This document shows, piece by piece, positions 977 through 11,599 of a stretch of DNA of 64,000 bases. Source of the DNA: an uncultured Chloroflexia bacterium (GTDB lineage: Bacteria > Chloroflexota > Limnocylindria > Limnocylindrales > CSP1-4); assembly GCA_963821595.1 (NCBI GenBank), contig CAWGEL010000023.1, positions 138,930-202,929 of the forward strand, written 5' to 3'. Position 1 is the stretch's first letter. Each line of letters begins with the position of its first letter. The notes beneath the pieces were generated by a model that was given only the letters and a program-made list of their open reading frames with translations, made no database searches and was not told the DNA's origin. The position numbers and the translations under genes were made by a program.

Positions 977-1657
977 ATGGTCGAGGCGAAGCGACTGATG
1001 GCAGATCCCCCGATCGGCAACGCGCAGGCGGTCCGGGCGCTCGTGGAGCGCGCGGTCGACGCTGCCCTCGGGGAAGCCCGGGCGGCCGTGCCCATGGGCG
1101 CCGACCGATCCCCCACCGGGGCTCCGGGAGCAACCCCGCCGGCCCCGGCCCCGGCCGCACCTGCACCCGCCGTCGCGCCGGGAGCCGCCATCGCCATCGG
1201 CGCGGATCACGGCGGCTTCGGCCTCAAGCAGGTCATCGCCAAGGCGCTGTCAGAGCGCGGCTATGCGGTCCGCGACTGCGGCACGAACGGCCCCGACGCG
1301 GTTGACTATCCCGACTTCGCCCACGCCGTCGCCCGCCTGGTGGCCGATGGCACCTGCGCCGCCGGCATCGTCATCGACGGGGCCGGCATCGGGTCGGCCA
1401 TGGCCGCGAACAAGGTTCCCGGCGTGCGGGCGGCCCTCTGCTATGACGTCTCGTCGGCGCGCAACAGCCGCGAGCACAACCACGCCAACGTCCTCACGCT
1501 GGGCGCGCGGCTGATCGGAGAAGGACTCGCCATGGAGATCGTGACCACCTGGCTGGCGACCGCGTGGGGGCCGGGCCGCCACGCGGCCCGCGTCGACAAG
1601 ATCATGGAGATCGAGCGGCGCTACGCGAGCCCGGCAACCGGCGGAGCCCCCCGATGA
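977..1657 (+). CDS. rpiB: Ribose-5-phosphate isomerase B-like (RpiB/LacAB family) with ~75-aa N-terminal encapsulation-peptide-like extension
   Basis: The core [13 protein letters not shown]...[28 protein letters not shown]...[14 protein letters not shown] aligns with RpiB. The N-terminus has an amphipathic helix ([16 protein letters not shown]) followed by a [11 protein letters not shown] linker. The stop overlaps the deoC start (ATGA at 1654-1657). Confidence 0.85.
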
Positions 1658-2532
1658 CCACGCCAGGGTTCGACCGCGACACGCTCATCGAAGCGATCAC
1701 CCGCCAGGTCCTTGCGGGCATGGCCGAAGGCCCCCTCGGCACCGGCGGTTGCGCCACCTGCCGCCTGGCCTGCGCGACCTCCTGCCCGGATCGCGTGCGC
1801 GAGGTCGTCACTTCCGGCGCGACCCGCGTGGAGTACCACGGGCCGGGCGGCGACGTCCCGCGCGACCTGGCCCGCTACATCGACCACACCCTGCTCCGCC
1901 AGGACGCGACCGCCGACCAGATCGACCGGCTCTGCGCGGAAGCCCGCGAGCACCACTTCGCGGCCGTGTGCATCAACCCGACCTGGGTTCGCCGGGCAGC
2001 CGACAACCTGCGCGGGACCGACGTGCCGGTCGCGTCCGTCATCGGCTTCCCGTTCGGCACGAGCACCAGCGAGATCAAGGCGATGGAGACCCGTCGGGCC
2101 ATCCGCGACGGCGCCCGCGAGATCGACATGGTCATCAACATCGGGGCGCTCAAGAGCGGGATGCAGGACCTGGTCCGGCAGGACATCGCGGGCGTGTCGG
2201 ACGCCTGCCACGAGGCCGGGGCGATCAACAAGGTGATCATCGAGGCGGCTCTCCTCACCGACGAGGAGAAGGTGATCGCCTGCCGCCTGGCCCAGCTCGC
2301 GAAGGCCGACTACGTCAAGACCTCGACCGGCTACGCGTCGGGCGGGGCGACCGTCTTCGACGTCGCGCTCATGCGCGAGACGGTCGGCCCTCGCATGGGC
2401 GTCAAGGCGGCCGGCGGCATCCGCACCGCCACGGACGTCGAGGAGATGATCGCCGCCGGGGCGACCCGGATCGGCGCGTCGGCCGGCGTCAAGATCGTCA
2501 CCGGAGAGAGGGGCTCGCATGAGCAATATTGA
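1654..2532 (+). CDS. deoC: Deoxyribose-phosphate aldolase (DERA) with ~70-aa N-terminal extension
   Basis: The DeoC core is recognisable: [36 protein letters not shown], and the Schiff-base region DYVKTSTGY...[10 protein letters not shown]. The extension contains the helix [15 protein letters not shown] and the motif [13 protein letters not shown]. The ATG at 1654 overlaps the rpiB stop. Confidence 0.9.
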
Positions 2533-3157
2533 GCTTCGTGCCTACGTCTTCCTCGACAGCCTCCAGGCCCAGTATTCGGCGTTCCTCGGCACGGTCGCCC
2601 AGGGGTTCCTGCCGCTGGCCGGCGATGCGTCCCTGTACGTCGAGGTATCGCCGGGCATCGAGATCAACCGCCTGACGGACATCGCCCTCAAGGCGACCCA
2701 GGTCAAGCCCGGGATGCAGATCATCGAGCGCTACTTCGGCCTGCTCGAGGTCCATTCGCCGTCGCAGGCCGAGGTGCGGGCCGCCGGTGCCGCCATCCTT
2801 CGCGAGCTCGGCATCGAGGAGCACGACCGGATCAAGCCGCGGATCCTCTCGAGCCAGATCATTCGCCGCATCGACGACCACCAGGCCCAGCTCATCAACC
2901 GGACGCGCCACGGCCAGATGATCATCGGCGGCCAGACCCTCTACGTGCTGGAGCTGGAGCCGGCGGCCTACGCGGCGCTGGCCGCCAACGAGGCCGAGAA
3001 GGCCGCCCGGATCAACATCCTCGAGGTGCGCTCGTTCGGCTCGATGGGCCGGGTGTACCTCGGCGGGGAGGAGCGCGACATCGACGTCGGCTGGCGCGCC
3101 GCGCTGGCCGCGATCGAAGGGCTCGAGGGGCGGGAGGGGCGCGAGGGGGCCAGGTAG
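2519..3157 (+). CDS. BMC shell protein, divergent tandem-domain (BMC-T-like)
   Basis: A 212-aa protein inside the shell-gene block. Its two ~90-aa halves each carry a BMC-like helix motif ([11 protein letters not shown] and [14 protein letters not shown]). A strong SD (GGAGAGAGGGG) precedes the ATG at 2519, and the gene overlaps the deoC end by 14 nt. Confidence 0.55.
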
Positions 3158-3232: not shown

Positions 3233-3541
3233 ATGGCTGACGCACTTGGGATGATCGAGGCCCGCGGGTTCGCCGCGATGGTCGAGGCCGCGGACGCGAT
3301 GGTCAAGGCGGCCAAGGTCGACCTGGTCGGCTACGAGAAGACCGGCGGCGGCTATGTCACGGCCATCGTGCGCGGCGACGTCGCCGCCGTGAAGGCCGCG
3401 GTGGAGGCGGGCGTCCGCAATGCCGCCAAGGTCGGCGAAGTCGTCGCCAGCCACGTGATCGCCCGGCCGCACACGAACATCGACATCGCCCTGCCGCTCG
3501 GCCGGGCCGACGAGGCACGCGCCGAGACGGGCGGCCGCTAG
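3233..3541 (+). CDS. BMC-H hexameric shell protein (PduA/EutM/CcmK-like, PF00936-type)
   Basis: The sequence is canonical: [57 protein letters not shown]. The SD AGGAGAG lies at 3221-3227. Confidence 0.95.
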
Positions 3542-3666: not shown

Positions 3667-3954
3667 ATGCTCCTGGGACGAGTCGTCGGGACGGTCGTCG
3701 CGACGCGCAAGGAACCGCAGATCGAGGGCTGGAGCCTGCTCCTGGTCCGCCAGCTCGACGCGGACAACCACGAAGGCAGCGGCTACGTGGTGGCCGTGGA
3801 CGCCGTCGGGGCCGGCGTCGGCGAGGTCGTGCTCTATGCCTCCGGCAGCTCGGCCCGCCAGACGGAGGTCACGCGGGACCGGCCCTGCGACGCGGTGATC
3901 ATGGCCATCGTCGACATCTGGGAAGTCGGCGGGAAGGACGTCTTCCGCAAGTGA
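3667..3954 (+). CDS. BMC-P pentameric vertex protein (EutN/CcmL/PduN-like, PF03319-type)
   Basis: The 95-aa protein reads [17 protein letters not shown]...LLLVRQLD...[24 protein letters not shown]...DAVIMAIVD, a typical EutN fold sequence. Confidence 0.9.
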
Positions 3955-3973: not shown

Positions 3974-5458
3974 GTGGCGCGAAGAGCGATGAGCGAGCTC
4001 AGCGACCGCGAGATCCAGGACATCATCGAGCGGGTCCGGCACCGCGTCGCCGGCGCGCCGGGCGCGCGGCCGGGCGCAGCCATGCGCGCCGACGCGGAGC
4101 TGGCCGCTGCGGCCGCCTCGTCGGCCGAACTCACGGACGGCGTCCACGCCACCATCGACCAGGCCGTGGCAGCCGCCCTGGCCGCCTTCGGGTCCTACCA
4201 GGCAATGGGCCTGAAGCGCCGCTACGCCATCGTCGAGGCCATCCGGACGTCGATGCTCGAGCACGCCGAGCAGCTGGCCCGCATGGCCCACCGCGAGACC
4301 GGCATCGGCCGGTTCGAGGACAAGATCCTCAAGAACCGCCTGGTGACGACGAAGGCGCCCGGGCCGGAGGACCTCGAGGTCGCCGCGACCACCGGCGACC
4401 GCGGGATGATGGCCACCGAGTTCGCGCCATTCGGCGTGGTGGCGGCCATCACCCCGGTGACGAACCCGACCTCGACCGTGATCAACAACACGATCAGCAT
4501 CGTGTCCGCCGGCAACGCGGTCGTCTTCAACGCCCACCCCAACGCGAAGCAGTGCTCGGCGGAGACGGTCCGGCTGCTCAACCGGGCGATCGTGGGGGCC
4601 GGCGGGCCGGCGAACCTCGTCGCCGCCGTTGCCCAGCCGACGATCGAGAGCGCCCGCGCGCTGATGAACCACCCCTCGGTCCGCCTGCTGCTCGTGACGG
4701 GCGGGCCGGGCGTCGTCCGTGAGGCCCTGCGCACCGACAAGCGGGCGATCACGGCCGGGCCGGGCAATCCGCCGGCGGTGGTCGACCAGACCGCCGACGT
4801 CGAGCGGGCCGGCCGCGACATCGTCCGCGGCGCATCCTTCGACAACAACCTGGTCTGCATCGACGAGAAGATCGCGATCGTCGTCGACTCGGTGGCCGAC
4901 CGCCTGATCCGGGCGATGGTCGGCGCCGGTGCCTACCTGCTCAAGGAGCACGAGCTGCGCCGGCTGGAGCGGGTCATCTTCCGGGAGCTTGGCGAGCCGG
5001 GCAAGCCGGGCGTGATGAACCCGGCCTGGATCGGCAAGGACGCCGGCCGGATCCTGGCCGAGATCGGCATGCGCCCGGAGGCGGACCCGCGGCTGCTCGT
5101 CGCCGACGTGCCGCGCGACCACAGCCTGGTCTGGACCGAGCAGATGATGCCGGTCCTGCCGGTGGTCCGCGTCGGGACCGTGGACCAGGCGATCGACCTC
5201 TCGGTGCGCGCGGAGCACGGCTTCCACCACACGGCCTCGATCCATTCCACGAACGTGGAGACGATCACGCGCATGGCCCGGGCCATGAACTGCTCGATCT
5301 TCGTGGCCAACGGGCCGAACCTGGCCGGCCTTGGCGAGGGCGGCGAGGGCTTCTGCTCCTTCTCGATCGCCAGCCCCACCGGCGACGGCCTGACCCGGCC
5401 GCGCACGTTCTCGCGCGAACGACGGATCACCGTCGTCGGCGCGCTGCGGATCATCTGA
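3974..5458 (+). CDS. CoA-acylating aldehyde dehydrogenase (PduP/EutE-like) with N-terminal encapsulation-peptide-like helix
   Basis: The active-site motif SFDNNLVCIDEK, TGGPGVV and FANGPN regions resemble PduP/EutE. The N-terminus is SDREIQDIIERVRHRV followed by an Ala/Gly linker. An alternative start is the ATG at 3989. Confidence 0.9.
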   Translation: MARRAMSELSDREIQDIIERVRHRVAGAPGARPGAAMRADAELAAAAASSAELTDGVHATIDQAVAAALAAFGSYQAMGLKRRYAIVEAIRTSMLEHAEQLARMAHRETGIGRFEDKILKNRLVTTKAPGPEDLEVAATTGDRGMMATEFAPFGVVAAITPVTNPTSTVINNTISIVSAGNAVVFNAHPNAKQCSAETVRLLNRAIVGAGGPANLVAAVAQPTIESARALMNHPSVRLLLVTGGPGVVREALRTDKRAITAGPGNPPAVVDQTADVERAGRDIVRGASFDNNLVCIDEKIAIVVDSVADRLIRAMVGAGAYLLKEHELRRLERVIFRELGEPGKPGVMNPAWIGKDAGRILAEIGMRPEADPRLLVADVPRDHSLVWTEQMMPVLPVVRVGTVDQAIDLSVRAEHGFHHTASIHSTNVETITRMARAMNCSIFVANGPNLAGLGEGGEGFCSFSIASPTGDGLTRPRTFSRERRITVVGALRII

Positions 5459-5459
5459 C

Positions 5460-6257
5460 GTGAGCCCTGCACCCCGCGCCCGGTCGGCCGCGTCGGCGGC
5501 GGGCTCGGCGGGCCCGGCGGGCCGCGGCGCGTCGGCGCCTGGCGCGGGCCGCGGCGCCTCGGACCCGCGTGGCATCACCGCCTCGGACCCGTCGGGCCCG
5601 GCTGGCCTCGACCCGGCCGTCGCCCTGCTCGAGCTGTCGTCGATCGCGGTCGGCATCGAAGCGGGCGACGCCATGGCCAAGCGCGCCCCGATCGACGTGC
5701 TCCACGCCGGCACGGTCCATCCCGGCCGGTACCTGGTCCTCGTGGGCGGGGCCGTCGCGGACGTCGAAGAAGCGCTCGATGCCGGCCGGGAGATGGGCGA
5801 GGGCTGCATCCTCGACGTCGTGCTGCTGCCGGGCGTGGACCCGCAGGTCGTTGCCGCGCTCCGTGGCCGCCGGCTGACGGGCGAAGGCGAGGCCCTGGGC
5901 GTGATCGAGACGACCACGGTCGCCTCGGTCATCGACGCCGCCGATGCCGGCGTGAAGGGCGCGCTGGTCCGCCTGCTGGAGCTTCGGCTGGCGGACGGGC
6001 TGGGCGGCAAGGCCTACCTGCTGTTCGACGGGCGGGTCGCCGACGTGGAGGCGGCCGTGGAGCTGGGGATGGCCCGGGTCGCAGCGAGCGCGCGGCCGGT
6101 GCACCCGGTCATCGGGCGGGTGATCCCGCAGCTGCACGACGCAATGCGGGCGAATCTCGAGGCCGATGGCCGCTTCCGGGCCGTGCTGCGGCCCGGCGGC
6201 GCGAGCCCAGTCGCTCACGTCGAAGCGCCGCCACGCCCGCGCCGCCGGAGGCCCTGA
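5460..6257 (+). CDS. BMC-T tandem-domain shell protein (PduT-like) with low-complexity N-terminal extension
   Basis: There are two BMC domains: ALLELSSIAVGIEAGDAMAKRAPIDVL... and ALGVIETTTVASVIDAADAGVKGALVRLLELRLA...GGKAYLLFDG. The GTG start lies 1 nt after the AldDH stop. Confidence 0.85.
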   Translation: MSPAPRARSAASAAGSAGPAGRGASAPGAGRGASDPRGITASDPSGPAGLDPAVALLELSSIAVGIEAGDAMAKRAPIDVLHAGTVHPGRYLVLVGGAVADVEEALDAGREMGEGCILDVVLLPGVDPQVVAALRGRRLTGEGEALGVIETTTVASVIDAADAGVKGALVRLLELRLADGLGGKAYLLFDGRVADVEAAVELGMARVAASARPVHPVIGRVIPQLHDAMRANLEADGRFRAVLRPGGASPVAHVEAPPRPRRRRP

Positions 6258-6261
6258 CGCC

Positions 6262-6987
6262 ATGCAGCTCGCCCGTGTCATCGGCACCGTCGTGGCGACC
6301 GTCAAGGCACCCGGCCTGGAAGGCGTCAAGCTGCTGATCGTCCAGCCGCTCGACCGACGGCAGCAGCCGTCGGGCACGCCGGTCGTCGCCGCCGACGCCG
6401 TGCACATGGCCGGGCCCGGCGAGCTCGTCTACATCGTGGCGGCCCGCGAGGCGGCCGAAGCGATGCCGGACCCGTTCGTGCCCGTCGACCACGCCATCGT
6501 GGGGATCGTCGACGCGGTGTCGCTCCTGCGGCCGGACGAAGGGGCCGCCGTCAACGACGGCGGACAGGACGACCGCGCCGCCCCGCACGAAGGCGAGGGC
6601 GCCGCGCCGCACGACCGCGCCCGACGGCGGCCGGCCATGAAGCTCGCCCGGGTGGTCGGGACCGTGGTCTCGACGATCACCATGCCCGCTCTCGAGGATC
6701 GGACGCTCCTGCTCTGCGACCTGGTCGCGCCGGACGGCAGGGCAGCCGGCGGGTACCTGATCGCCGTCGACACTGTGGGGGCCGGCGCCGGCGAGACCGT
6801 CCTGATCCTCGACGAGGGCAACTCCGCCCGGCAGATCCTCGGCCTGCGCCAGGGCCCCATCCGGACCGTCGTGGTCGGCATCGTGGACGACGTCGCGGTC
6901 GAGGCCGAGCACGTACCGGGCCAGCTCCCCGTGGCGACGCCTTCAGGAAGCCGCAGGACGATCCCGAGTCGGCGGACGCGACCATAG
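6262..6987 (+). CDS. Fused tandem BMC-P: two EutN/CcmL-type domains in a single reading frame
   Basis: Domain 1 starts at ATG 6262 (MQLARVIGTVVATVKAPGLEGVKLLIVQPLD...IVGIVDAV). Domain 2 starts at the in-frame ATG 6637 (MKLARVVGTVVSTITMPALEDRTLLLCDLV...VVVGIVDDV). No stop codon separates them, and a ~36-aa acidic/Gly/Ala linker joins them. The ATG at 6262 lies 4 nt after the BMC-T stop. Confidence 0.7.
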   Translation: MQLARVIGTVVATVKAPGLEGVKLLIVQPLDRRQQPSGTPVVAADAVHMAGPGELVYIVAAREAAEAMPDPFVPVDHAIVGIVDAVSLLRPDEGAAVNDGGQDDRAAPHEGEGAAPHDRARRRPAMKLARVVGTVVSTITMPALEDRTLLLCDLVAPDGRAAGGYLIAVDTVGAGAGETVLILDEGNSARQILGLRQGPIRTVVVGIVDDVAVEAEHVPGQLPVATPSGSRRTIPSRRTRP

Positions 6988-8977: not shown

Positions 8978-10026
8978 CAGTTGACCCCGCCCTCCAGGTC
9001 CGCCTCCATGTCGTCGAGCTCGCGGCTGAACGTGCCGGCGGACAGGTATTTCCAGCCGCCATCGGGCAGCAGGGCAACGATGGTCCCGGACGCCATCCGC
9101 CTCGCGACGCGCGCGGCGGCAACCAGGACCGCGCCGCAGGAAGGGCCGGCGAAGATGCCCTCCCGGAAGACGAGCTCGCGAAGGGACGCGATCGCCTCCC
9201 GGTTGGAGACCAGGAACTTGCCGTCGAGGATCGCCGGGTCGAACACCTCCGGCACGAATCCCTCGTCGAGCGAGCGCAGCCCCTGCACGTTCTCGCCGGG
9301 CAGCGGCTCCGCGGCGTAGACGCGGACACCGGGCCGGTGCTCCTTGAGGTACCGTCCCGTGCCGGTGAGCGTCCCGCCGGTCCCGAGGCCGGCGACAAAG
9401 ACGTCGATCTCCGGGCAGTCCGCCAGGATCTCGGGCCCGGTGGTCTCGTAATGCGCCTGGGGGTTCGCCGGGTTGCCGTATTGGTATGGCATGACGAACC
9501 GTTCGTCACGACTCACCAGGTACTTGGCCAGGGCGATCGCACCGTTGCTCCCCTGCTCCGCCGGGGAATCGATGATCTCTGCCCCGAACAGCGCGGCGAC
9601 CTGGCGGCGCTCCTCGGTCACGTTCGCCGGCATGACCAGGGCCACCCGGTAGCCCTTGCGACGGCCGATCATGGCCAACGCGATCCCGGTGTTGCCCGAC
9701 GTCGGCTCCAGGATCACTGAGTCCTCGTGGAGGAGCCCGCGCCGCTCCAGATCCGCCACCAGGTAGGCTGCCGCGCGGTCCTTCACGGACCCGGTGGGGT
9801 TGTACATCTCGAGCTTGGCCAGGATCCGCACCGCCGGACTCGGGCTCATCCGGGGGATCTCGACCAGCGGCGTGTGCCCGACCGCGTCGAGGATGCTCGC
9901 GTACCGGCCCCCGTGCCTCGGCAGTTCGGCGTGGTCGTGAACGTGCGGATGGTCGGCCGCGGCCGACTCCGCGGGCGACGCTGGCGCCCCGGGGCGAGCC
10001 CGGACCGGCCGCGAGGTGATCGTCAT
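8971..10026 (-). CDS. cysM: Cysteine synthase CysM-type (PLP-dependent; sulfur-carrier-protein-dependent O-phosphoserine sulfhydrylase family)
   Basis: PLP-lysine region NPTGSVKDRAA, plus TSGNTGIALA and GLGTGGTLTG. The ATG at 10026 overlaps the cysO stop (ATGA). There is a ~40-aa His-rich N-terminal extension. Confidence 0.85.
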   Translation of the reverse strand: MTITSRPVRARPGAPASPAESAAADHPHVHDHAELPRHGGRYASILDAVGHTPLVEIPRMSPSPAVRILAKLEMYNPTGSVKDRAAAYLVADLERRGLLHEDSVILEPTSGNTGIALAMIGRRKGYRVALVMPANVTEERRQVAALFGAEIIDSPAEQGSNGAIALAKYLVSRDERFVMPYQYGNPANPQAHYETTGPEILADCPEIDVFVAGLGTGGTLTGTGRYLKEHRPGVRVYAAEPLPGENVQGLRSLDEGFVPEVFDPAILDGKFLVSNREAIASLRELVFREGIFAGPSCGAVLVAAARVARRMASGTIVALLPDGGWKYLSAGTFSRELDDMEADLEGGVNWW

Positions 10027-10301
10027 GCCGCGCCGCCGGCCATGGCCGGCAGGATCACGACCTCGTCGCCGTCGGCGATGGCCGTCGCCAGGTCGCCGGT
10101 GTAGCGCACGTCCTGGCCGTCCACGTACACGTTGACGAACCGATTGAGCCCGCCATCGTCGGTGAGCAGCTGCTGACGCAGCCCCGGGTGCGCGGCGGTC
10201 AACGCGGCGAGGATCTCGCCGACCGTCGCGCCGCTGACATCGAGCGTCTTGCTGCCGCCCGCCTGCGCTCGCAGGACCGGCGGGATCCGGATCCTGGCCA
10301 T
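10023..10301 (-). CDS. cysO: ThiS/MoaD-family sulfur-carrier protein (CysO-like), C-terminus ...AMAGG-AA
   Basis: A 92-aa beta-grasp-type sequence (VRYTGDLATAIADGDEVVILPAMAGGAA). It sits between an E1-like adenylyltransferase and cysM. Both gene junctions are ATGA overlaps. Confidence 0.85.
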   Translation of the reverse strand: MARIRIPPVLRAQAGGSKTLDVSGATVGEILAALTAAHPGLRQQLLTDDGGLNRFVNVYVDGQDVRYTGDLATAIADGDEVVILPAMAGGAA

Positions 10302-11599
10302 CAGCGACGCTCCGGTGCGCCCGCGGCGAGAGAGGCAACGCCCGGCCCACCCAGGACGAAGGTCCCCTCGCCAACCGCGATCGGCGTCGTCGGGACGGCC
10401 GGTGCCGCGCCGGGTCCGGTCGGCGCTGCGCCGGGTCCGGCCGGCGCCGCGGGCCGGGCCGCCGTCCCCGCCCGGTACGCCGCGACCGCCTCGTCGGAGC
10501 AGGCCGGGCAGTCCGGGTCGCGCTGCAGCGTGAGCTCGCTGAACGTGCCATCGAGCGCGTCGAAGAGGAGCAGGCGCCCGATCATCGGCTCACCGATGGC
10601 GAGCAGGAGCTTGAGCACTTCGCTCGCCTGCAGGAGGCCCATGATCCCGGGCACCACGCCCAGCACGCCGGCGACCGAGCAGCCCGGAGCGAGCTCCGGC
10701 GGGGGCGGCGACGGGTAGAGGCAGCGATAGCAGGGCCCCTTGCCGGGGGCGAAGACGCTGAGCTGGCCCTCGAAGCGGAACACCGACGCATGGACGACCG
10801 GGATGCCGGCGGCGACGGCCGCATCGTTGAGCGTGTAGCGCGTCTCGAACGTGTCGGTGCCGTCGAGGATGACGTCGTAGCCGGCGATGATCCGGTCCAC
10901 GTTGTCCGGACCAAGGACCTCGTCGATGCCCACGACGTGCACGTCGGGGTTGAGGGCGGTGATGGTCCGCTCGGCCGAAACGACCTTCTTCTCGCCCACC
11001 CGGTCGGTGGCGTGGAGGACCTGGCGCTGGAGGTTCGAGATGTCGACCACGTCGAAATCGACGATCCCGAGCGTGCCGACGCCGGCCGCCGCCAGGTACA
11101 GCGCGGCGGGCGAGCCCAGCCCGCCGGCGCCCACGAGCAGTACCTTCGAGTCGAGGAGCCGCGCCTGTCCCTCCGAACCGACCTCCGGGATCAGGACGTG
11201 GCGGCTGTAGCGGCGCTTCTGGTCGGCCGTCAGGATCGACGGCTGAATCCAGGGCAGGCCTCGCGCCTTCCATTCGTCGAAGCCGCCCGCCAGCGAGACC
11301 ACGTCCTCGTAGCCCATCGCCCGGAGCGTCTGGCCGGCGAAGAGAGAGCGGACGCCGCCGGCGCAGTAGAGCACGACCGGCGTCCGCCGGTTCGGCACGG
11401 AACCCTCGACCTGCTGCTCGAGGTAGCTCTTGGAGATGTGCGTCGCGCCCGGGATGTGGCCCTGCTCCCACTCCTCGGTCTCGCGCACGTCGATCACGGC
11501 GACCCTAGGGTCGGCGCGGAGGCGGTCCGCGGCCGGCGGATCGACCTCCGGGATCTCGGCGCGGGCCTCGCGGAGGAGGTCGGCGTAGGTCTTCGGCAT
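10301..11599 (-). CDS. Rhodanese::MoeB/ThiF-type adenylyltransferase/sulfurtransferase (rhodanese domain N-terminal)
   Basis: Residues ~20-125 form a rhodanese domain with the active loop CAGGVRS. A ThiF/MoeB domain follows (LLVGAGGLGSPAALYLAAAGVG, two CxxC pairs CYRC and CPAC), then a ~60-aa Ala/Pro/Gly repeat tail. Confidence 0.85.
   Translation of the reverse strand: MPKTYADLLREARAEIPEVDPPAADRLRADPRVAVIDVRETEEWEQGHIPGATHISKSYLEQQVEGSVPNRRTPVVLYCAGGVRSLFAGQTLRAMGYEDVVSLAGGFDEWKARGLPWIQPSILTADQKRRYSRHVLIPEVGSEGQARLLDSKVLLVGAGGLGSPAALYLAAAGVGTLGIVDFDVVDISNLQRQVLHATDRVGEKKVVSAERTITALNPDVHVVGIDEVLGPDNVDRIIAGYDVILDGTDTFETRYTLNDAAVAAGIPVVHASVFRFEGQLSVFAPGKGPCYRCLYPSPPPPELAPGCSVAGVLGVVPGIMGLLQASEVLKLLLAIGEPMIGRLLLFDALDGTFSELTLQRDPDCPACSDEAVAAYRAGTAARPAAPAGPGAAPTGPGAAPAVPTTPIAVGEGTFVLGGPGVASLAAGAPERR

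Follow-up and report, generated by a model that had tools for sequence, protein, structure and literature searches.

The first ~7 kb of the DNA analyzed here (the window; 64,000 nucleotides of contig CAWGEL010000023.1 from an uncultured Chloroflexia bacterium, GenBank assembly GCA_963821595.1) is a compact, co-directional operon of a sugar-phosphate utilization (SPU)-type bacterial microcompartment (BMC), as assigned by Pfam searches of the neighboring genes. We focused on its deoxyribose-phosphate aldolase (DERA/DeoC), whose N-terminal extension contains a conserved Cys3-(Cys/His) motif that may form a metal site. The gene (positions 1654 to 2532, plus strand) encodes 292 aa by translation, matches PF01791, and aligns with solved DERAs at an E value of 1e-79. 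Direct reading of the sequence places a GGAG Shine-Dalgarno element at 1643 to 1646, 7 nt 5' of the ATG at 1654, and this start codon (1654 to 1656) shares the sequence ATGA with the TGA of the upstream gene. That gene (977 to 1657; PF02502) encodes an RpiB-like protein with an N-terminal extension of the encapsulation peptide (EP) type and is the operon partner of DERA. The operon opens with a SorC-family regulator (2 to 928). Downstream of DERA follow, by Pfam, a CsoS1D-like BMC-T(dp) (2519 to 3157), a BMC-H (3233 to 3541), a BMC-P (3667 to 3954), an acylating aldehyde dehydrogenase (AldDh; 3974 to 5458), a tandem, PduT-like BMC-T(s) (5460 to 6257), and two further BMC-P domains (6262 to 6987), all on the plus strand. 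The operon thus combines DERA with AldDh, an RPI-like gene, and shell genes of the BMC-H, BMC-T, and BMC-P classes.

Scanning the GTDB species representatives yielded 563 confirmed relatives, 80 of which were fetched; these come from Chloroflexota (including Limnocylindria), Acidimicrobiia, Gaiellales/Thermoleophilia, and Acidobacteriota. As far as the contigs reach, the gene order RpiB-DERA-T(dp)-H-P-AldDh-T(s)-P is common to all 80 loci, and about 60 of them have the complete set of genes. The RpiB-like gene was syntenic in every locus that reaches upstream of DERA (5 of the 80 are cut there). The DERA N terminus is also conserved at the protein level. The top 120 database clusters (72 to 87% identity) nearly all cover 98 to 100% of the query, and the extension is encoded in all 74 loci with a complete, readable N terminus (of the 80, 4 were unparsed and 2 were cut by a contig end). 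This conservation upholds the start at 1654 and speaks against one downstream of 1788.

The catalytic part of the protein is a class I aldolase TIM barrel (residues 69 to 292; positions 1858 to 2529). Pfam DeoC covers residues 75 to 279 with a score of 70.5 bits against a cutoff of 23.8, and the alignments with solved DERAs begin at residues 69 to 74, with one exception that reaches back to residue 55 (chain 3ngj). Since both start only at about residues 69 to 75, roughly 70 N-terminal residues are additional to the known fold. In a Foldseek search of the PDB, the DERA model matched with an E value of 2e-25 and TM scores of 0.81 to 0.89 (normalized to the target, closest DERAs) over 206 to 217 aligned columns; only the barrel matched, and the extension was found in no solved DERA. 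The enzyme has the Schiff-base Lys222 within KTSTG (2317 to 2319), with dyvKtstg aligning with solved DERAs, and the Asp158 (2125 to 2127) and Lys251 (2404 to 2406) of the proton relay. All three are invariant in our alignment of 138 orthologues and correspond to D165, K229, and K258 of the characterized SPU6 DERA from Chloroflexi (PMC11585597). A second, free-standing DERA is encoded in the same genome (contig 17, ~123.3 to 124.0 kb; positions 1453 to 2130 of our locus L085). Its core is 50% identical to that of the BMC enzyme, and only 14 residues precede its IDHS sequence, with neither the extension nor the Cys motif. This paralogue is presumably the housekeeping deoC, so that of the two DERAs only the microcompartment one carries the extension. 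The N-terminal extension is real and BMC specific.

Such an extension has been described before. Dwyer et al. (Commun Biol, 2024) reported that all SPU-associated DERAs have an N-terminal extension of ~70 residues, consisting of an amphipathic helix and two low-confidence beta-strands, an extension that non-BMC DERAs lack and that gene callers often overlook (PMC11585597). They interpreted it as an EP and removed it from the SPU6 enzyme to obtain an active dimer. The view that the extension is unusual for an EP, taken in the original prediction, is thus superseded by this publication. Cysteine is mentioned in the main text of that paper only for the RPI active site and in a mass spectrometry setting, with no motif and no metal (PMC11585597). 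Our literature search for the exact motif spacing returned only substring matches inside two-motif ferredoxin signatures. The extension is therefore already known, and the conserved Cys3-(Cys/His) motif inside it appears to be undescribed.

From its N terminus, the extension can be divided into four segments. Residues 8 to 24 (1675 to 1725) form an amphipathic, EP-type helix in the AlphaFold2 model, with a hydrophobic moment of 0.5 to 0.6 in 11-mer windows, and are conserved in the orthologue alignment as LIEAITREVLAAL. A Gly/Ala/Pro-rich linker follows (residues 25 to 32; 1726 to 1749), with gaps and variable length among orthologues and a pLDDT below 50. The motif itself (residues 33 to 44; 1750 to 1785) reads, with the next two residues, C33-A-T-C36-R-L-A-C40-A-T-S-C44-P-D, so that the cysteines are spaced 2/3/3 and are followed by Pro45. 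Its codons lie at 1750 to 1752 (Cys33), 1759 to 1761 (Cys36), 1771 to 1773 (Cys40), and 1783 to 1785 (Cys44); position 43 (1780 to 1782) is Ser in the window and His in many orthologues. The last segment, residues 45 to 66 (1786 to 1851), joins the motif to the barrel through a helix (45 to 53), the sequence G55-A56-x-R58, a strand (58 to 61), and G63. AlphaFold2 predicts this junction with a pLDDT of 71 to 75; G55, A56, and R58 do not vary across the 138-sequence alignment, nor does G63 in an alignment of 66. Translation, Pfam, and AlphaFold2 therefore bear out the anatomy first proposed for this protein, namely, a helix, four Cys spaced 2/3/3, and a core starting at about residue 72.

The terminal amphipathic helix and variable linker, absent from the non-BMC paralogue, suggest that this part of the protein has an encapsulation role. 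Canonical BMC EPs such as those of PduP, PduD, and EutC likewise consist of an amphipathic helix of ~15 to 18 residues and a poorly conserved linker. Unlike these peptides, which end at the linker, DERA adds a conserved 30-residue Cys/His segment before the enzyme, with invariance at the level of the active site. Across the 138 aligned orthologues (52 to 83% identity), which join the clade of the window and an Anaerolineae/Caldilineales clade (two deep clades), Cys33, Cys36, and Cys40 are as invariant as the catalytic D158, K222, and K251. The same three cysteines are invariant in all three alignments that we built, including the 66-sequence one.

The fourth position behaves differently. Among 175 unique N termini with the first three Cys in register, Cys44 is present in 128 and absent in 47. 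All 47 sequences that lack it have His at the preceding position (as HS, HN, HV, or HT), and none of the 175 lacks both residues. To place these changes, we used trees built on the DERA core only, with the extension excluded. On these trees, Cys44 changes state 18 times, with 16 to 17 of the changes falling within the 87 rows that bear His. Every one of the 49 rows lacking Cys44 has His, and the 93 rows without His all retain Cys44. Seven independent contrasts fall on well-supported branches. As simple arithmetic and not a formal phylogenetic test, the probability that seven independent Cys-less lineages would all carry His is about 2e-4 to 6e-3, given His in 29 to 48% of rows. The BMC-associated DERAs thus have three invariant Cys and a fourth Cys or adjacent His, and the free-standing paralogue lacks the motif, so that the comparison of BMC-associated with free-standing DeoC suggested in the original prediction turns out in its favor.

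Other relatives vary the motif further. In four Acidimicrobiia species, it reads T-H-E-D-D-C-D-G-A-C-A-Y-H-S, that is, H-x3-C-x3-C-x2-H, with His at the first ligand as well as the last. Gaiellales have C-x-C-x4-C-x3-C-x2-H-C, Caldilineales have the six-Cys variant CSGCGxxCxGNCAxxCPDRC, and other Anaerolineae have CxVCxxxxCDGQC. Thermoanaerobaculia orthologues have 5 to 7 Cys in the extension. The Thermoanaerobaculia-type loci L089 and L090 (DERA at 10001 to 10867) have an extra Cys upstream of the motif, and most of the closest group, including the L089 enzyme, has one inside the otherwise invariant GAxR strand (GACR). In these two loci, genes for acyl-CoA dehydrogenase, MeaB, and a glyoxalase come after the operon. 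The motif can also be lost as a whole. It is deleted as a block in loci L061, L070, and L075 and in proteins P0140, P0151, and P0259, all of which keep the EP helix, the VRxVVxxGAxR junction, and the operon. No differences in the core genes of the operon were found in the three motif-less loci.

The motif was seen only on BMC-operon DERAs. Extension-bearing DERAs had a BMC operon context in all 80 GTDB loci and in five other loci. A phmmer search with residues 1 to 72 against 1.84 billion representatives gave 32 matches and no other protein context: the 17 matches long enough to include IDHT are DERA N termini or fragments of them, several frameshifted or chimeric downstream, and the remaining matches are short fragments with the same extension. 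Chance does not account for the motif: translating the window in six frames gives two matches to C-x2-C-x3-C-x2-(H.|.C) where 0.04 would be expected, the other match lying on the minus strand in a frame rich in Cys and Arg. The relatives found by the sequence searches and the genome-collection scan are of the PduS-less operon type only, as distinct from the PduS-containing SPU1 to SPU5 and SPU7 loci.

From this anatomy, BMC specificity, conservation, and Cys/His exchange, we infer metal binding, the kind of metal, and a structural role for it. The three invariant Cys, the interchangeable Cys or His at the fourth position, the Cys-to-His change at the first position in one clade, and the loss of the motif as a whole all point to a four-ligand metal site. 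A metal or cluster site in the extension, as originally proposed, is the best reading of the sequence data, on the strength of the Cys conservation and the Cys/His fourth ligand. In the arrangement that we favor, with confidence that is no more than middling, the extension would be a three-part module. The EP helix (residues 8 to 24) would target or aggregate the enzyme, and a flexible Gly/Ala linker would connect it to a four-ligand knuckle formed by Cys33-x2-Cys36-x3-Cys40 and either Cys44 or His43. This knuckle would lead directly into the helix-strand segment of residues 45 to 63, with its invariant G55, A56, and R58, set against the aldolase barrel. The metal would be structural, most likely of the Zn2+ type, and would stiffen the junction between a floppy targeting arm and the enzyme. 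The knuckle may also offer a small folded patch through which cargo could contact other cargo or the shell. As proposed, this adaptor subdomain would not be a ferredoxin domain and would not be needed for class I aldolase chemistry.

Zinc is favored because the ligand set drifts between CCCC, CCCH, and HCCH, because the site is dispensable in some lineages, and because it lies in an exposed region of proteins from hosts presumed to be mostly aerobic; these are general arguments. Such drift is typical of Zn sites, and the loss of the whole motif resembles the loss of structural Zn sites in the C+/C- ribosomal proteins. Many of the host lineages (soil and water Chloroflexota and Acidimicrobiia) appear to be aerobic. 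The four Cys/His ligands are conserved within a short loop, and the compensatory exchange has occurred in independent lineages (16 to 18 changes and 7 supported contrasts, in addition to the HCCH variant). The full-length SPU6 DERA did not become soluble in E. coli until its extension was deleted (PMC11585597), a behavior compatible with an unfilled metal site and equally with EP-driven aggregation. Short Zn knuckles and structural Zn sites that some lineages have lost, such as the retroviral CCHC knuckle and the sites of the C+/C- ribosomal proteins, likewise have four ligands within 12 residues, a CxxC start, Cys/His exchange, and lineage-specific loss. The DERA motif differs in that its spacing, C-x2-C-x3-C-x2/3-(H/C), could be matched to no named knuckle family and has no Pfam or PDB match.

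Several observations weigh against a structural Zn knuckle. With both alignments used for AlphaFold2 (66 and 138 sequences), residues 21 to 39, including Cys33 and Cys36, were predicted with a pLDDT of only 40 to 46, and self-contained Zn knuckles are often well predicted by this program. Pfam searches with four divergent N termini gave no match even at an E value of ≤10. A 28-sequence N-terminal profile had no significant match among all PDB sequences, the top noise being a nanobody CDR3 with an E value of 0.06. A single Zn would not require as many thiols as the clades with 5 to 7 Cys possess, and the Gly-rich CSGCGxxC variants look Fe-S-like. The covariation counts at the fourth position were drawn from related sequences, with only seven contrasts on well-supported branches. 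A formal sign test of the covariation between Cys44 and His was not significant; since the members of a pair seldom differ in His, this test tells little.

The closest competitor of the Zn-type knuckle, a serious one although we consider it rather unlikely, is a motif that binds a [4Fe-4S] or [2Fe-2S] cluster and serves as a redox-active or O2- or redox-sensing center. Since DERA is a dimer (PMC11585597), two motifs could share clusters. In Mo-bisPGD enzymes, the FS0 [4Fe-4S] motif is built on the same C-x2-C-x3-C core, and the H-x3-C-x3-C variant of NarG parallels that of the Acidimicrobiia. The six-Cys Anaerolineae/Caldilineales variant (CSGCGxxCxGNCAxxCPDxC) adds to this resemblance, as does protein P0146, which reads C-x2-C-x2-C-x3-C-x3-CP and so contains the classical ferredoxin spacing. 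Among the subthreshold PDB matches of the N-terminal profile, the only proteins with Cys motifs were a 4Fe-4S protein and HdrC (E values of 0.6 to 1.3, not significant). Redox modules on SPU aldolases have a precedent in archaeal (Hodarchaeal) SPU-like compartments, which fuse DERA to a flavoprotein domain. Against a cluster, the fourth ligand is freely Cys or His and one clade has two Cys and two His, which is unusual for cubane clusters. Many host lineages that are apparently aerobic and a motif segment predicted to be exposed and flexible are likewise unfavorable.

The resemblance to ferredoxins is limited. The ferredoxin CxxCxxCxxxCP and FS0 C-x2-C-x3-C motifs share with the DERA motif close-set cysteines separated by small residues and, in the case of FS0, a common core. 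DERA differs in having a single motif instead of two, a Pro that is not conserved, and a fourth ligand close to the others instead of distant from them. Among unique sequences, the fourth position is followed by Ala in 92, Pro in 51, and Ser in 29, and the spacing is 2/3/3; the description of the motif as ferredoxin-like and ending in Cys-Pro therefore does not hold across orthologues, and the segment matches no Pfam or PDB family. A ferredoxin-type 4Fe-4S domain finds no support, given the absence of a Pfam match at an E value of ≤10, PDB Fe-S matches at E values of only 0.6 to 1.3, and the lack of a beta-alpha-beta domain in the AlphaFold2 model of the extension. We also rejected a c-type heme site (CxxCH), which is found only in a subset of Acidimicrobiia (CADCHG), is not conserved, and would lie in a cytoplasmic protein.

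A cluster could have a place in cofactor recycling. It might bridge the N termini of the dimer and help in NAD+ recycling or redox control in SPU6-type compartments, and it may pass electrons toward the His-lined pore of BMC-T(s) or gate cargo packing or activity by the redox state of the lumen. SPU6 is listed as a type with unexplained NAD+ recycling; according to Sutter et al. (2024), its NAD+ regeneration "has yet to be determined" (10.1101/2024.07.15.603600). The loci inspected in full (the window and L086 to L090) contain no PduS/MNdh, PTAC, or alcohol dehydrogenase gene in the ~10 kb around DERA, and the absence of PduS/MNdh there counts in favor of a cluster. The relay formed by PduS/MNdh and PduT-type proteins (10.1101/2024.07.15.603600) is likewise associated with microcompartments, uses Cys-ligated cofactors, and serves NAD+ recycling. 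In contrast to that relay, there is no MNdh in the operon or in ~10 kb around DERA in five relatives, and the pore residue here is His or Gln. Because the operon has no flavin or NADH-binding partner to feed an Fe-S cluster, we give little credence to a role in NAD+ recycling or redox control.

The shell provides no known electron exit either. At the position of Cys38, the 4Fe-4S ligand of PduT within CPGK, the BMC-T(s) of the window aligns with a His (TVHPGRY, near 5700); the same position is Ser in crystallized PduT mutants. In related loci, this pore residue is His in 47 of 57 cases and Gln in the other 10, never Cys. Docking of the extension to a PduT-like Fe-S pore, as had been suggested, is thus left without support, since the pore residue is His or Gln rather than a cluster-binding Cys, and a PduT-type Fe-S shell partner was rejected because the pore carries neither CPGK nor CSGK. 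Three His at the pore of the BMC-T(s) trimer could instead bind metal or tune charge. Loss of the DERA motif is not accompanied by loss of the pore His, which loci L070 and L075 keep.

Metal-free redox thiols are, in our judgment, improbable. In such a scheme, disulfides would cross-link the cargo or switch its packing, or the thiols would scavenge reactive aldehydes. Redox-thiol behavior of this sort is thought to be used by CcmM and CsoS2 in carboxysomes, and DERA is inactivated via a Cys by crotonaldehyde formed from acetaldehyde. The number of cysteines, which ranges from 3 to 7 across clades, would suit such a patch, as would an i, i+4 spacing that lines thiols along one face of a helix. 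However, His cannot stand in for Cys in a disulfide or a scavenger, yet it precedes the fourth position in every Cys44-lacking sequence and occupies the first ligand in another clade. This interchange also disfavors the structural disulfides raised as an alternative in the original prediction. In addition, three strictly invariant Cys at fixed spacing exceed the needs of a generic thiol patch. Slightly less probable still is a motif with no cofactor at all, a conserved part of the encapsulation signal that contacts shell or partner proteins via small residues: it would agree with the treatment of the whole extension as an EP by Dwyer et al. (PMC11585597), with the lineages that keep the operon without the motif, and with the lack of a confident AlphaFold2 fold, but Cys is a rare residue, and three invariant copies over 52 to 83% identity together with compensatory Cys/His exchange are unexpected for a plain docking surface.

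The closest known system to the operon of the window is SPU6. The SPU6 DERA of Chloroflexi bacterium GWB2_54_36 is the same enzyme, with a ~70-aa extension and the conserved Asp/Lys/Lys (PMC11585597). Both operons encode an RPI-like protein, DERA, AldDh, BMC-T(dp), BMC-H, and three BMC-P and lack PduS and PTAC. They differ in the regulator, which is SorC in the window and GntR in SPU6, and in AldDh, whose EP is N-terminal in the window and C-terminal in SPU6. The AldDh of the window (3974 to 5458) begins with an EP-like helix, LSDREIQDIIERVRHRV, and an Ala/Gly/Pro linker and has no evident C-terminal extension. Because of the SorC regulator and the N-terminal AldDh EP, the operon may fall outside SPU6 proper, although its gene content is SPU6-like.

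Some features of the surrounding genes were noted in passing. In the window, positions 6166 to 6987 hold two EutN/CcmL domains in one open reading frame (ORF), where L089 and L090 show two separate BMC-P genes. The RpiB-like protein (977 to 1657) carries, at the position of the catalytic Cys66 of E. coli RpiB, a residue that fits the Asp published for SPU RPIs. All SPU RPIs are stated to have Asp at that active-site position and negligible R5P isomerase activity. In the Anaerolineae/Caldilineales SPU loci, DERA is followed directly by a small ORF of 83 to 98 aa (L086, 10873 to 11169; L087, 10886 to 11137; L088, 10893 to 11144), which is absent from the operon of the window. It contains the conserved motif H-x3-C-x2-C (HAMQCEMCRDRLL, HAHLCSPCRSRLL, and HAWQCLDCQAKLL), which we take to be ZAS-like, and an identical C-terminal RLRHL; none of the three had a Pfam match. 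Dwyer et al. mention two "hypothetical proteins" (PMC11585597), and this ORF may correspond to one of them.

Few metabolosomes are as widespread as SPU compartments, yet until now the extension of their signature enzyme has been interpreted solely as a targeting peptide. If the motif held an Fe-S cluster, it would touch the stated gap in NAD+ recycling in SPU6-type organelles (10.1101/2024.07.15.603600). If the metal site is real, the deletion of the whole 70-residue extension, as done for solubility, would also remove that site. Cargo extensions could then hold folded, cofactor-bearing adaptor modules and not merely a helix on a string, which would bear on the organization of the cargo core and on the design and truncation of engineered tags.

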